Of a stretch of DNA of 64,000 nucleotides, positions 40,980 to 47,137 are shown piece after piece. Source of the DNA: Escherichia coli O127:H6 str. E2348/69 (GTDB lineage Bacteria > Pseudomonadota > Gammaproteobacteria > Enterobacterales > Enterobacteriaceae). The stretch is taken from assembly GCF_000026545.1 (NCBI RefSeq), contig NC_011601.1; one strand, written 5' to 3'. How positions within the stretch are numbered: the first letter of the stretch is position 1; each line of letters starts with the position of its first letter. The notes under the pieces were generated by a model, which saw only the letters and a program-made list of their open reading frames with translations, had not been told where the DNA came from and did not search any database. The translations under genes were made by a program, and so were the position numbers.

Positions 40980-41376
40980 TAAAGCAGTGCCTTATGTCCG
41001 TAATAACCCGGACAAACTGCATCTGTTTGTGGATAACGGTTCGCTGGTTGCCACGGGGGCCAGCTCCATGTCATGGGAGTACCGCTACACCCTGAACGTG
41101 GTGATTGAGGATTTCAGCGGCGACCAGAATCTGCTGATGGCCCCGGTTTTGCTGTGGCTGCGTGATAACCAGCCCGATGCCATCAATAACCCGGCGTTAC
41201 GGGAAAAGTTATTCACCTTTGAGGTGGATATTTTGCGCAACGATGTCTGTGATATCAGCCTTAACCTGCAACTGACGGAGCGTGTGCTGGTCAGCACTGA
41301 CGGCAGTGTGTCGAGTGTTGAAGCGGTAGCGGAACCTGATGAACCTGAAGAAATGTGGACGGTGAAACGTGGCTGA
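40924..41376 (+). CDS. R: Tail completion protein R
   Basis: ~150 aa, position as P2 R before S. Confidence 0.75.
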   Translation: MRVRSETVNKPQSLRHALNKAVPYVRNNPDKLHLFVDNGSLVATGASSMSWEYRYTLNVVIEDFSGDQNLLMAPVLLWLRDNQPDAINNPALREKLFTFEVDILRNDVCDISLNLQLTERVLVSTDGSVSSVEAVAEPDEPEEMWTVKRG

Positions 41377-41745
41377 ACTGCAGAAGGTGGACGACTGGCT
41401 GAGTGCCTTGCTGGCGAATCTGGAGCCAGCCGCAAGAAGCCGCATGATGCGCCAGCTGGCGCAGGAACTGCGCCGGACACAGCAGCAGAACATCAGGATG
41501 CAACGCAATCCTGATGGCAGCAGCTATGAACCGAGGCGAGTAACAGCACGCAGTAAAAAAGGCCGTATCAAACGGCAGATGTTTACAAAACTTCGCACCA
41601 CAAAATACCTGAAAACTGCCGCCAGCGCCGACTCTGCCAGCGTGCAGTTTGAAGGTAAGGTACAGCGCATTGCCCGTGTTCACCATTACGGCTTGCGTGA
41701 TCGCGTCAGCCGTAAGGGGCCACAGATACGTTATGCTAAACGTAG
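41369..41745 (+). pseudogene. S: Tail completion gene S, 3'-disrupted at the gix-like junction
   Basis: P2 S-like sequence to ...RVSRKGPQIRYAKR, then frame runs antisense through H with no stop until 42157. Confidence 0.6.
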
Positions 41746-41756
41746 GTATGTGAGAA
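41731..41756. repeat. gix/hix-like 26-bp recombination site A
   Basis: TTATGCTAAACGTAGGTATGTGAGAA; half-sites resemble Hin/Gin crossover sites; 11-bp core TAAACGTAGGT shared in inverted orientation with site B; the H ORF stop codon is the last 3 nt. Confidence 0.55.
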
Positions 41757-42792
41757 GACCAGTTACATCCTTTCCACTCAAATTAGTCAGCGTATTGTCC
41801 AGCGGTTGTTTACCTGCCAGTGCATTAAGCATTGTCGTGGCAAAGTTCGGGTCATTCCCCAGCGCCGCCGCCAGTTCGTTCAGTGTATCCAGTGCCGCAG
41901 GTGCAGAACCCACCATTGCCGCAATCGCCGATTTCACAAATGCCGTGGTGGCAATTTGTGTATTGTTGACCGACTGTGCCGCAGTAGGTGCGGTTGGCGT
42001 TCCGGTGAGTGCCGGACTCGACAGCGGCGCTTTCAGTGCCAGCGCATTGTTAATGGTGGTACTGAATTTCGGATCATTGTTAATGGCTGCGGCTATTTCT
42101 TTCAGCGTGTCCAGCGTGGCTGGCGCACCATTAATAAGAGCCGTCAGAGCCGCCTGAACAAACTCGGTGGTCGCAATCTGCGTGGTGTTATTCCCTGCTG
42201 CTGGCGTTGGCGCTTTGGGTGTCCCGGTAAACGTCGGACTTTCTTTGGGTACATACTGTGAATGCGGGTCCGGTGCGGCAAGATGTTTTGCCATCTGATC
42301 ATCCGCGTACACCTTCAGCTCCAGTGCCTTGTCATCCACATACTTGCGGGTTGCTAGCACTACAGCAGGGTCGATTTTCAGGGTGATATTGTCCGTGCTG
42401 CTGGTAATCAGCACCATGCGCACGGTCTGAGTGCGCCCGCTACCTTCAGCCAGTTGCGGCTTATAGCTTTCCGGGCAGTTGCCCACGGCAATCAATGCCC
42501 CGGACTCATCAAACAAGCCCACTTCACGTATCCACCAACCGCCCTCGTTTTCAGGAATCACCTGTTCGGCAATAATCTGACTGCTGTTCTGCGGGTCGAT
42601 ATAGAGCATATTCAGCGCAGCCCGGCGTTTCTCATTTACCAGTGCAGTCTGCTTTGAGTCTGGCGTTGGCAATACTCCGCCGCCATCGCCGACCGCCATA
42701 TGGGTAATTTTTAGCGGCACACCGAGCGCGGCGGCGCTGGCAAGTTTCGCCGCGCCAATATCCGTCAGCAGGGTATAAAATTTTGTGCTCAT
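41731..42792 (-). CDS. H: Tail fiber protein H, N-terminal constant portion only
   Basis: N-terminus matches P2 H by eye (MAVGDGGG, ESYKP.LAEGSGR, NDPNFATTM.NALAGKQP); ends at 353 aa versus ~670 in P2, exactly at site A. Confidence 0.8.
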   Translation of the reverse strand: MSTKFYTLLTDIGAAKLASAAALGVPLKITHMAVGDGGGVLPTPDSKQTALVNEKRRAALNMLYIDPQNSSQIIAEQVIPENEGGWWIREVGLFDESGALIAVGNCPESYKPQLAEGSGRTQTVRMVLITSSTDNITLKIDPAVVLATRKYVDDKALELKVYADDQMAKHLAAPDPHSQYVPKESPTFTGTPKAPTPAAGNNTTQIATTEFVQAALTALINGAPATLDTLKEIAAAINNDPKFSTTINNALALKAPLSSPALTGTPTAPTAAQSVNNTQIATTAFVKSAIAAMVGSAPAALDTLNELAAALGNDPNFATTMLNALAGKQPLDNTLTNLSGKDVTGLLTYLRLA

Positions 42793-43394
42793 GGATTCAC
42801 TCTCATTGTGTCAATAACATGGACCGCCCCGCCTTCATGCGCGGTGCCGCCAGAAATAATTGTTTCGTTGATATACGGATAGATCGTGATTTCTTCGCCA
42901 AGATAGCTGGCGGCCCCCACCCAATGCGGACCGCTGGTCTGCAGATTGATGGACATGCCGATCATGTGACGGCTACATGGTTTGGCATCGCTTATCAGCC
43001 GCTCAAGTTCCAGATAGGTATCTTCAGTGATGCCCTGGTCCTGCACGCAGATATCCAGGCGAAACGTGCCCGGTGCCTCTCCGGTCTGCCACCACTCAAT
43101 AATGCGGATCAGAAAGCCGAACGGCTCCACCACCCGCCGCACGGCACTGGTGGTTCCTTTATGCTGATGAATATAAAAAGCATCCTTCACCACCTGACGT
43201 TTGACGCTTTCTGTCCAGCCCTCGTCCCAGCGATCCACAGAGAACGCCCAAGCGAGATAAGGCAGGAAACTGACCGGACAGGTTGCCGGATTCCACAAGT
43301 CACGCAGCGGCACCTGCAGATCAGAAATCCCGCTGCAGGTTTGCGCCAGTCGGCGCTCCAGTGGCGTTGAACCCGGTGGCAGCAGACTATTCAT
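42789..43394 (-). CDS. I: Baseplate protein I (P2 gpI-like)
   Basis: 201 aa; LWNP.TCP...LPYLAWAFSVDRWDE matches P2 I. Confidence 0.85.
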   Translation of the reverse strand: MNSLLPPGSTPLERRLAQTCSGISDLQVPLRDLWNPATCPVSFLPYLAWAFSVDRWDEGWTESVKRQVVKDAFYIHQHKGTTSAVRRVVEPFGFLIRIIEWWQTGEAPGTFRLDICVQDQGITEDTYLELERLISDAKPCSRHMIGMSINLQTSGPHWVGAASYLGEEITIYPYINETIISGGTAHEGGAVHVIDTMRVNP

Positions 43395-46453: not shown

Positions 46454-46489
46454 TTATCTCTTCTATAATATCAAAATCAGTATCATAAA

Positions 46490-46515
46490 TTCCAAGTAAC
46501 CTACGTTTATGAAAA
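46490..46515. repeat. gix/hix-like 26-bp recombination site B
   Basis: TTCCAAGTAACCTACGTTTATGAAAA, ~55 bp upstream of invertase start; 18/26 identical to reverse complement of site A. Confidence 0.55.
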
Positions 46516-46570
46516 TGCAGAGATAATGGCTAACTGGCATCATCCACGGTTTTTATTCAGGGGATTGATC

Positions 46571-47137
46571 ATGCTTATTGGCTATGTACGCGTGTCAACA
46601 AATGACCAGAACACCGATTTGCAACGTAATGCACTGAACTGCGCGGGATGTGAGCGGATTTTTGAGGATAAAATCAGTGGCACTAAGTCCGACAGACCGG
46701 GGCTTAAAAAACTGCTCAGGACACTATCGGCAGGAGACACTCTGGTTGTCTGGAAGCTGGACAGGTTGGGGCGCAGTATGCGGCATCTTGTTACGCTGAT
46801 AGAAGAGTTGCGTCAGCGTGGCGTGAATTTCCGAAGCCTGACTGACAGTATTGATACCAGCACCCCAATGGGCCGTTTCTTTTTTCATGTCATGGGGGCC
46901 CTGGCTGAAATGGAACGCGAACTGATAGTTGAACGTACCATGGCAGGGCTGGCTGCAGCTCGTGCCAAAGGCAGAGTAGGTGGACGCCGTCCTAAGTTGA
47001 CCACCGAACAGTGGGCACAGATTGGGCGTTTACTCGAGGCCGGAGAATCAAGACAGCGTATTGCACTGATTTTTGATGTAGGCGTTTCTACCATTTATAG
47101 AAAATTTCCGGCAAATAAGAGCAATGAATCCCCCTGA
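46571..47137 (+). CDS. pin: Serine site-specific DNA invertase (Pin/Gin/Hin family)
   Basis: Start MLIGYVRVSTNDQ with catalytic Ser; near-identical by eye to e14 Pin / Mu Gin; C-terminal HTH. Confidence 0.9.
   Translation: MLIGYVRVSTNDQNTDLQRNALNCAGCERIFEDKISGTKSDRPGLKKLLRTLSAGDTLVVWKLDRLGRSMRHLVTLIEELRQRGVNFRSLTDSIDTSTPMGRFFFHVMGALAEMERELIVERTMAGLAAARAKGRVGGRRPKLTTEQWAQIGRLLEAGESRQRIALIFDVGVSTIYRKFPANKSNESP

Follow-up and report, generated by a model that had tools for sequence, protein, structure and literature searches.

Genome organization of the prophage

The window analysed here is the whole 64,000-nucleotide stretch taken from the chromosome of EPEC strain E2348/69, and it was 100% identical to three E2348/69 assemblies. 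It contains a P2-like (Peduoviridae) prophage bordered by rcdA and ybjL. The annotations showed the full P2 late-gene set and order (Q P O N M L X, lysis, R S V W J I H G FI FII E T U D ogr) with two exceptions: the S-to-H block is rearranged, and G is missing. The integrase and a C-type repressor were annotated at the prophage end opposite the late genes.

The tail completion gene R (40945..41376, + strand) is intact in the ORF list and in the PGAP annotation of the identical E2348/69 record, and belongs to the left uninverted flank. The S 5′ fragment on the same strand (41369..41744) comprises codons 1–125 and was assigned by translation comparison and by PHROG 26 (tail completion protein). 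Over these codons, its sequence is the same as S of the intact relative, E. coli NCTC11121. PGAP labels it a pseudogene, "incomplete, missing C-terminus". Past a TA core, the S reading frame continues antisense through H to 42157. The H gene (41731..42792, − strand) retains the constant N-terminal part, 353 aa, as defined by alignment to the 500-aa H of NCTC11121. Approximately the first 350 residues are native and are followed by RLA-stop, and the tail-fibre PHROG matches to H reach the N-terminal part of the profiles only.

Four genes on the − strand are intact in the ORF list and PGAP: I (tail protein I, 42789-43394), J (baseplate assembly protein, 43387-44295), W (GPW/gp25, 44282-44641), and V (baseplate assembly protein V, 44638-45216). 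A TGT-N12-ACA element (45262..45279, − strand) is found inside the inverted block, about 55 nt 5′ of the V start codon, and the same element occurs at the same distance from V in AR_0013. The motif is presumably of the P2 late-promoter type, and the element may serve the V operon as an Ogr-responsive late promoter. A low-GC, HEPN-like ORF of 381 aa (45308..46453, + strand; 393 aa when counted from 45272) comes next. Its end is overlapped by the S 3′ fragment (46431..46503, − strand), comprising codons 126–148 and the stop codon, which was located by re-inversion and the NCTC11121 sequence and is inverted and separated from the rest of S. The right uninverted side carries an intact 188-aa DNA invertase (46571..47137, + strand) and the annotated, intact tail sheath gene FI (47280..48452, + strand).

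In-silico re-inversion against NCTC11121 defined the inverted segment as 41745..46501 (4,757 bp). It contains the H constant part, I, J, W, V, the candidate V promoter region, the HEPN-like ORF, and the S 3′ end, and the same block was found contiguous in relatives. A preliminary description of this DNA had placed V-W-J-I-H on the strand opposite R/S and FI. The ORF list and annotations agree with this strand assignment, and the inverted genes were correctly named; the block, however, extends further than that description stated, as the low-GC ORF and the S 3′ end also lie inside it.

DNA invertase

The invertase (WP_000905023.1) belongs to the Gin/Pin serine family. It shares approximately 78% identity with Mu Gin (PDB 3UJ3, E = 1e-93, 184 residues aligned) and matches the PHROG 125 DNA invertase (E = 3e-100). 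Its 188-aa length and this alignment fit a small serine recombinase with an N-terminal catalytic domain and a C-terminal helix-turn-helix. Position 9 is serine, whereas the crystallised 3UJ3 protein has alanine there. A Pin/Gin invertase to the right of the second crossover site had been described before, and its family and place were right; its start is 46571, not 46526.

A loose Fis-motif scan for a 5′ enhancer gave two weak matches, at a density of approximately three times the background. A Fis-dependent enhancer, if there is one, was probably retained, because the same invertase protein is encoded in the window and in NCTC11121 and the flanking DNA is approximately 99% identical.

Intact relative and re-inversion

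NCTC11121 is 99.6% identical and has the order R-S-[antisense ORF]-V-W-J-I-H-G, G′-Hv′, invertase-FI. Its fibre segment is a standard one of approximately 2 kb, with Hv-G and G′-Hv′ between two normal 26-bp AA-core sites. The gixL site is TTCTCCCAAACC AA GGTATGTGAGAA and the gixR site is TTTTCATAAACG TT GGTTTGGGAGAA. The S sequence at the breakpoint is TTCCAAGTAACC TA CGTTTAGCATAA.

Flipping 41745-46501 back in silico restored a 148-aa S identical to that of NCTC11121. The re-inverted block was collinear with the relative (99.6% over 5,603 bp) and kept one clean gap of approximately 1.97 kb, corresponding to the invertible fibre segment; a loss of the variable fibre segment had been suspected from the E2348/69 sequence and is supported by this gap. 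When H, G, G′, and Hv′ of NCTC11121 were searched against the whole window by tblastn, the only matches were H residues 1–352 and a 21-residue stub adjoining the invertase. The absence of the H C-terminal receptor-binding region and of a G-like gene from the window, claimed in the preliminary description, was thereby borne out. The alignment of S and H to the intact relative that it had called for placed the breakpoints at the cores, with S split and H matched over residues 1–352.

Crossover sites A and B

Two 26-bp sites in inverted orientation flank the block. Site A (41731..41756) is TTATGCTAAACG TA GGTATGTGAGAA, in which a TA core joins the S 5′ quasi-half TTATGCTAAACG to the half from the H constant region, GGTATGTGAGAA. 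Site B (46490..46515) is TTCCAAGTAACC TA CGTTTATGAAAA, in which the S 3′ quasi-half TTCCAAGTAACC is followed, after TA, by the half nearest the invertase, CGTTTATGAAAA. Comparison with the parental sites of NCTC11121 shows that A and B are exact, reciprocal combinations of half-sites: the halves meet at the 2-bp core, and not one base has been added or removed. The coordinates of both sites and their common 11-nt inverted core TAAACGTAGGT had been given correctly before, and the proposal that site A combines S coding sequence with the end of H is borne out by the comparison with NCTC11121. The reciprocal hybrid nature of site B and the S 3′ end beside it had been overlooked, as had the cassette origin of the cryptic site in S.

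The 11-nt inverted repeat by itself is not above chance, since 6.3 kb of sequence held 27 pairs of comparable kind, this one included, and it was dropped as stand-alone evidence. The sites are significant because the comparison with relatives shows that both are exact hybrids of real crossover sites. In a position weight matrix (PWM), site A scored 22.7 bits (halves 5.9 + 16.8) and site B 10.7 bits (halves −4.5 + 15.2), against 34–36 for natural sites. Both have the right length, inverted orientation, and core position, with one consensus half-site each. The asymmetric core typical of the Din family was not found at A or B: their cores are both TA, identical but palindromic. The invertase-proximal sites of relatives had an AA core in 75 of the 77 extracted, with strongly conserved half-sites; the two others were an E2348/69-type copy and one mis-extracted site. 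The left half of site B occurred, among 80 related loci, only in the near-identical E2348/69-type copy.

Quasi-site in S and the HEPN-like cassette

The 26-bp sequence within S, TTATGCTAAACG TA GGTTACTTGGAA, bears a weak likeness to a crossover site. It ranked 7th among the 33,975 26-mers of the restored prophage by PWM, with a score of 1.4 bits; approximately three such sequences are expected by chance in a shuffled prophage. The DNA around the quasi-site is AT-rich and was brought in with the HEPN-like gene cassette. Where a phage lacks the cassette, the unrelated TTACGCAGAGCG TC GCCTTCTGGGTG stands at this position, indicating that the cassette created the quasi-site. The cassette was found with an intact S in 17 other genomes.

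The HEPN-like ORF has a GC content of 0.28–0.38 and is antisense between S and V in intact relatives. By fold comparison, the protein has a C-terminal domain of HEPN fold and is similar to ApeA-like HEPN proteins. PADLOC, Pfam, and NCBIfam gave no meaningful match for this ORF, and tblastn against 50,697 GenBank phage records gave no hit.

Occurrence and orientation

Both junctions were present in 3/5,426 complete E. coli genomes, all of them E2348/69 assemblies, so the rearrangement is unique to E2348/69 among these genomes. A single orientation was found in the three assemblies and in the IMG/VR copy. In a published paired-end screen of the whole E2348/69 genome, three other prophages had active invertible loci, at 1.89, 2.75, and 2.98 Mb; the rcdA-ybjL locus is not among them, at a stated sensitivity of approximately 1:100 (PMC4272514). 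Two invertible fibre segments of P2-like prophages were shown to switch in E2348/69 itself (PMC4272514). Invertase activity therefore exists in this strain, as three other prophage loci switch (PMC4272514).

No intermediate state was found in the 5,426 E. coli genomes, IMG/VR, or the JGI metagenomes. Exact-pattern scans gave no H-invertase fusion site in IMG/VR or the JGI metagenomes, and no S 5′-variable or S 3′-variable hybrid in IMG/VR. No description of this rearrangement was found in the literature searched.

Origin of the rearrangement

Off-target (quasi-site) recombination by an invertase in a P2-like prophage is very probably the origin of this arrangement. The preliminary description had proposed an invertase-mediated exchange between the fibre crossover site and a cryptic site in S, and the comparison with NCTC11121 supports it. 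The features expected of a quasi-site product are present, namely reciprocal breakpoints exact to the core and an arrangement that is rare and lineage-specific relative to carriers of the parental sites. The enzyme would be this invertase or another prophage invertase of the strain.

The ancestor was probably NCTC11121-like, with the order R, S, [antisense HEPN-like gene], V, W, J, I, H constant, gixL, Hv, G, G′, Hv′, gixR, invertase, FI. In a first step, the invertase would have paired the quasi-site in S with one of the two real fibre sites, broken each of them at its central dinucleotide, and swapped the half-sites, producing an inversion. In a second step, the hybrid site with the TA core would have recombined with the remaining real site, and the fibre segment of approximately 1.97 kb (Hv, G, G′, Hv′) would have been lost by excision. 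The outcome would be site A as S 5′ half-TA-H half and site B as S 3′ half-TA-invertase-side half, with the V-W-J-I-H(constant) operon, the HEPN-like gene, and the S 3′ end inverted between them. The two-step scheme and the order of its steps are our inference, because no intermediate was found.

Besides the missing intermediate and the chance-level score of the quasi-site, further points count against this origin. Excision is a topology that invertases do not favour. Each step also needs ligation across a one-base core mismatch (TA vs AA). With Hin in vitro, a single core change blocks ligation of recombinants (PMC4817059), so events of this kind must have been very rare here. Since the palindromic TA is one base off AA in either alignment, deletion would be chemically no worse than inversion.

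Recombination by a route other than an invertase, that is, illegitimate or microhomology recombination or a replication error with a coincidental likeness to crossover sites, is far less probable. The parental S and gix sites do share few identical bases around the core, the quasi-site score falls inside the chance expectation, and random deletion is common in prophage decay; one surveyed locus (L061), for example, has an S-to-Hv′ deletion with IS1-like sequence at the junction. However, all four of the four breakpoints fall exactly at central dinucleotides, those of both genuine sites and of the 26-bp site-like sequence. The hybrids are perfectly reciprocal with no bases lost or gained, the deleted DNA is the exact interval between two genuine sites, and breakpoints exact to the core recur in an independent event in AR_0013. 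A misassembly across short repeats deserves practically no weight. Short junction repeats are the only point that speaks for it, and at 11 nt they are far below the length that misleads assemblers. The fibre segment is wholly missing, and the inverted orientation is shared by an IMG/VR contig and three E2348/69 assemblies that were deposited separately, with one gap in 12.5 kb; on this agreement, an artefact was rejected.

The 4.76-kb block might instead be a working large invertible segment, with cells alternating between this state and one with an intact S and the P2-like order, as the preliminary description had also considered. Sites A and B are inverted, each with one consensus half-site, and because their TA cores are identical there is no ligation barrier between them. 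The invertase is intact and lies at its native distance from site B, other invertases of E2348/69 are active, and flipping back should be no harder than the original event, for which a 1.4-bit site was enough. Against this, a single orientation is seen in the three assemblies and the IMG/VR copy, neither IMG/VR nor the metagenomes contain the flipped-state junction, and the published screen, with its sensitivity of approximately 1:100, names no switching at rcdA-ybjL (PMC4272514). Site B scores 10.7 bits vs 34–36 for natural sites. No functional benefit of switching is evident, because H is truncated in either state. We therefore consider a working segment unlikely; any switching would probably stay below about 1%. 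It is equally doubtful that the hybrid sites still recombine at low frequency, whether through the invertase of this prophage or through those active in three other prophages of the strain. If they do, E2348/69 would have a 4.76-kb switch that joins or splits the tail-completion gene S and turns the baseplate operon, together with a defence-type HEPN-like gene, around with respect to late transcription. AT-rich inserted genes would then, via quasi-sites, make off-target recombination by invertases a recurrent inactivation route for P2-like prophages.

Under the preferred off-target origin, we read the arrangement as frozen and defective, a product of ordinary prophage decay by a known class of mechanism and not a new system. 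Since S is incomplete and the receptor-binding end of H and G are absent, the prophage should produce neither a full-length S nor a receptor-binding fibre, and it would lack the fibre chaperone; it would be defective for infectious particles unless complemented. This is in line with the earlier view of a tail-fibre-defective prophage.

Comparison with known systems

The Din tail-fibre systems (Gin/Mu G, Cin/P1 C, Pin/e14 P, and P2-like fibre segments) use the same kind of enzyme, approximately 78% identical to Gin in the present case. They also share with this locus the 26-bp sites of 12 + 2 + 12 bp and the position between H and FI. The E2348/69 block differs in its size of 4.76 kb and in carrying baseplate genes, a HEPN-like gene, and the S end. 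Unlike Din segments, it has no alternative fibre C-termini or chaperones, as judged by tblastn with the relative's proteins. Unlike Din sites, A and B are each half quasi-site, with a palindromic TA core instead of AA. Switching of the block, in contrast to Din systems, was not detected in the published screen (PMC4272514).

The arrangement resembles Cin quasi-site recombination in its core-exact crossover, its hybrid sites, and its identical hybrid cores. Iida and Hiestand-Nauer (Cell 1986; Mol Gen Genet 1987) are said to have described recombination by P1 Cin at quasi (secondary) crossover sites, reportedly a low-frequency reaction between a genuine site and a weakly similar sequence, with crossover at the central dinucleotide, hybrid sites, and a "localized conversion" by which both hybrid cores become identical. 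The Cin cases are plasmid and phage experiments, whereas the E2348/69 case is natural and fixed in the chromosome, with a later excision of the fibre segment and a defective prophage.

If the off-target origin is correct, the locus is a natural case, exact to the base pair, of a phage harmed by its own DNA invertase. A single inversion at an off-target site and a single excision would have removed the receptor-binding fibre genes and split S, and the pseudogene annotation of the E2348/69 prophage would result from these two events. Two points of mechanism stand out: the quasi-site was created by an AT-rich inserted gene cassette, and the palindromic core taken from it would abolish the chemical bias against deletion. 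For annotators, an inverted tail module beside an invertase can mean prophage decay and not a programmed switch. The general understanding of invertases and P2-like phages is unchanged by this case.

Our survey for aberrant sites took in 80 related viral loci. In loci without a detectable left site, the upstream DNA was unrelated. One locus with odd sites (L035) was considered as a quasi-site event and set aside as unclear; this phage has a fixed glycine-rich fibre end and degenerate sites.

A second, independent event was found in the P2-like prophage of E. coli AR_0013 / OZ546943, where gixL recombined, exactly at the core, with a quasi-site inside FI, GCGACATTATCG AA GGTATCCGCGCC. The inversion split two essential tail genes. 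This event is analogous to that in E2348/69: the invertase family and the H-side crossover site are the same, and the quasi-site is in a structural gene. It differs in that the quasi-site is in FI (sheath) and its core is AA. The inverted block also takes in the invertase together with the entire variable segment, and no later deletion followed. The AR_0013 case suggests that such events recur.

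Prophage location and gene organization

The rearranged region (window positions 40900-47300) showed 100% identity to three assemblies of enteropathogenic E. coli O127:H6 E2348/69. It lies in a P2-like prophage of approximately 34 kb (~20446-54423) inserted between rcdA and ybjL. Integrase and repressor genes were annotated at the left end of the prophage, and D and ogr at the right end. R and a shortened S, which PGAP annotates as a pseudogene, are on the plus strand, followed by H, I, J, W, and V on the minus strand. The low-GC ORF, which encodes a HEPN-like protein, a serine invertase gene (46571-47137, 188 aa), and FI, FII, E, T, U, and D are again on the plus strand. 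The remaining late genes outside the rearranged part were annotated as intact in LT827011.1. The tape-measure gene (49461-52538, plus strand) is an intact ORF of 1,025 aa in both the window and LT827011.1; assembly CP059840.2 marks it as frameshifted, which is probably a sequencing difference between assemblies. Other cargo (21585-23102 and 23128-24671, both minus strand, and 30646-33049) includes a KAP-family P-loop NTPase adjoining the integrase, two neighbouring CI-type repressor genes, and a DprA-like gene. Between the replication and portal genes, positions 30981-32075 carry no annotation.

Comparison with an intact relative

NCTC11121 carries a near-identical prophage with the normal P2-type order of R, S, an antisense hypothetical gene, V, W, J, I, H, and G. 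G is followed by G′ and Hv′ on the opposite strand, and then by the invertase and FI. H of NCTC11121 has 500 aa, and its invertase shares one protein accession with that of E2348/69. In silico reversal of 41745-46501 produced a 148-aa S identical to that of NCTC11121 and a collinearity of 99.6% with NCTC11121 over 5,603 bp. Since the reversal restored the full S, the 3′-end of S is not missing; it is located at 46431-46503, inverted and overlapping the end of the low-GC ORF. A single clean gap was left after reversal, namely the exact interval of approximately 1.97 kb (Hv, G, G′, and Hv′) between the two genuine crossover sites. This gap agrees with the loss of the variable fibre segment suggested in the preliminary description. 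H in the window is native for approximately 350 residues and then reaches a stop codon. G, G′, and the fibre C-terminus were searched for across the whole window and none was detected, as expected from the earlier claim that the receptor-binding end of H and a G-like gene are absent.

Crossover sites and invertase

Two 26-bp gix-like sequences had been proposed to bracket the block, and both were found exactly at 41731-41756 (site A) and 46490-46515 (site B). Site A (TTATGCTAAACG TA GGTATGTGAGAA) comprises the 5′ half from S, TA, and the H-side half, and site B (TTCCAAGTAACC TA CGTTTATGAAAA) comprises the 3′ half from S, TA, and the invertase-side half. The corresponding sequences in NCTC11121 are TTTTCATAAACG TT GGTTTGGGAGAA next to the invertase, TTCTCCCAAACC AA GGTATGTGAGAA inside H, and TTCCAAGTAACC TA CGTTTAGCATAA inside the 3′ part of S. 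The alignment with NCTC11121, an intact P2-like relative of the kind proposed for comparison, defined the breakpoints and identified sites A and B as hybrids. Site A is indeed an S/H hybrid, its halves matching S and the H-side site of NCTC11121. The 11-nt inverted core shared by the two sites is real, but on its own it is no better than chance (27 comparable inverted pairs in the same 6.3 kb).

Natural sites scored 34-36 bits in a half-site weight matrix derived from 63 natural site pairs, against 22.7 for site A, 10.7 for site B, and 1.4 for the parental site-like sequence in S (the S quasi-site). The invertase-proximal site was near-invariant among 80 related viral loci, with an AA core in 75 of the 77 extracted sites; of the other two, one belonged to a near-identical E2348/69-type copy and one had been mis-extracted. 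The S quasi-site ranked 7 among 33,975 positions of the restored prophage, and approximately three of this quality would be expected after shuffling, so it is fortuitous rather than evolved. At this position, a related phage that lacks the insert reads TTACGCAGAGCG TC GCCTTCTGGGTG. The S quasi-site owes its existence solely to AT-rich DNA that arrived with the inserted ORF and replaced the 3′-end of S.

The invertase matches Mu Gin at approximately 78% identity across 184 residues. Its position 9 is a serine, where the crystallised Gin has an alanine.

Proposed mechanism

Serine invertases cut the centre of each site with a 2-bp stagger and swap half-sites through subunit rotation. Ligation requires matching core bases, and one core mismatch stops Hin ligation in vitro (PMC4817059). 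Two events would be needed here, because a single inversion does not account for both the flipped block and the lost fibre segment. The first would be an inversion between the S quasi-site and one genuine site, gixL in H or gixR near the invertase. The daughter inheriting the plus strand would have TA at both new junctions, which is the observed state. The second would be an excision between the hybrid site still flanking the fibre segment and the remaining genuine site. The palindromic TA would mismatch AA by one base in either alignment, so that the excision would be chemically no worse than the inversion; excision with the natural AA/TT pair would cost two mismatches. Either genuine site could be used first, and both routes would yield exactly sites A and B.

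The observation in the preliminary description was confirmed, and its interpretation was supported and refined. The core-exact hybrids support Gin/Pin-type recombination at a cryptic site in S; invertase catalysis, the two-step scheme, and the order of steps are inferred. Excision is a topology not favoured by invertases. Since a core mismatch also blocks Hin ligation, the events must have been very rare. Such rarity fits the distribution in 5,426 complete E. coli genomes, where the same cassette accompanies an intact S in 17 other genomes and only E2348/69 is rearranged. Intermediate states were sought in these genomes, IMG/VR, and JGI metagenomes, and none was found.

Stability and consequences of the arrangement

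The arrangement could also be one state of a large invertible segment. Reversal is possible in chemical terms, because sites A and B are inverted, have matching cores, and each retain one good half-site. However, all three E2348/69 assemblies and the IMG/VR copy have the same orientation. Goldberg et al. screened the whole E2348/69 genome by a paired-end approach, at a stated sensitivity of approximately 1:100, and reported only three invertible loci, two of them P2-like (1.89 and 2.98 Mb) and one Mu (2.75 Mb) (PMC4272514). The rcdA-ybjL locus, at approximately 0.87 Mb in LT827011.1, is not among them (PMC4272514), and the inverted-repeat motif common to the three loci was not found in the rcdA-ybjL prophage. 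These data argue against appreciable switching (flipping of at least 1%), and we conclude that the arrangement is fixed and defective, although flipping at a frequency below 1% might occur.

The S tail completion gene is split, H lacks its receptor-binding end, and the fibre chaperone is absent, which fits the tail-fibre-defective prophage proposed earlier. The baseplate genes V, W, J, and I are intact. A TGT-N12-ACA element approximately 55 nt upstream of V was relocated with them and has equal spacing in E. coli AR_0013. Because this element moved along with the genes, V, W, J, and I may remain expressed, in an orientation that now converges with R and S.

Relation to known systems and other rearranged prophages

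The E2348/69 locus is built of the same parts as the classical tail-fibre inversion systems (Gin/G, Cin/C, and Pin/P). Unlike a working fibre switch, it has no asymmetric core, alternative fibre ends, or observed switching, and it is therefore a product of a fibre inversion system rather than a member. Cin recombination at quasi-sites is reportedly the same type of event, and the E2348/69 locus is a new natural example of this known kind. No published account of the rearrangement was found in the literature searched.

The P2-like prophage of AR_0013 (locus L003), also present in OZ546943, has a different aberrant inversion between the H-side site and a quasi-site in the sheath gene FI (GCGACATTATCG AA GGTATCCGCGCC). 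The aberrant sites are located at 5135-5160 and 8725-8750 of L003. The exchange is exact at the AA core, H and FI are both split, and the inversion carries the invertase along with the fibre segment. It is the second case of off-target inversion in a P2-like prophage, independent of the first, and its core-exact use of a quasi-site gives independent support to the mechanism proposed for E2348/69.

Two related prophages among the 80 surveyed viral loci differ in the fibre region. Locus L035 (3758-5950) encodes a complete H of 557 aa whose C-terminus is glycine-rich, and a lone downstream 137-aa ORF occupies the fibre-assembly position. Its crossover sites are both degenerate (left, TTCTCGCATACC TT GGTTTGGTGGAT; right, GTGCGAGTATTG AA CGTTTAAGAAAA) and its invertase is intact; it looks like an orphan invertase next to a fixed fibre. 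Locus L061 (4626-5727) is deleted all the way from the 3′ part of S to Hv′. At its junction, a 311-bp sequence matches the end of locus L001 and includes the beginning of an IS1A transposase gene. L061 thus reached a tail-module loss of the same kind by a different route.
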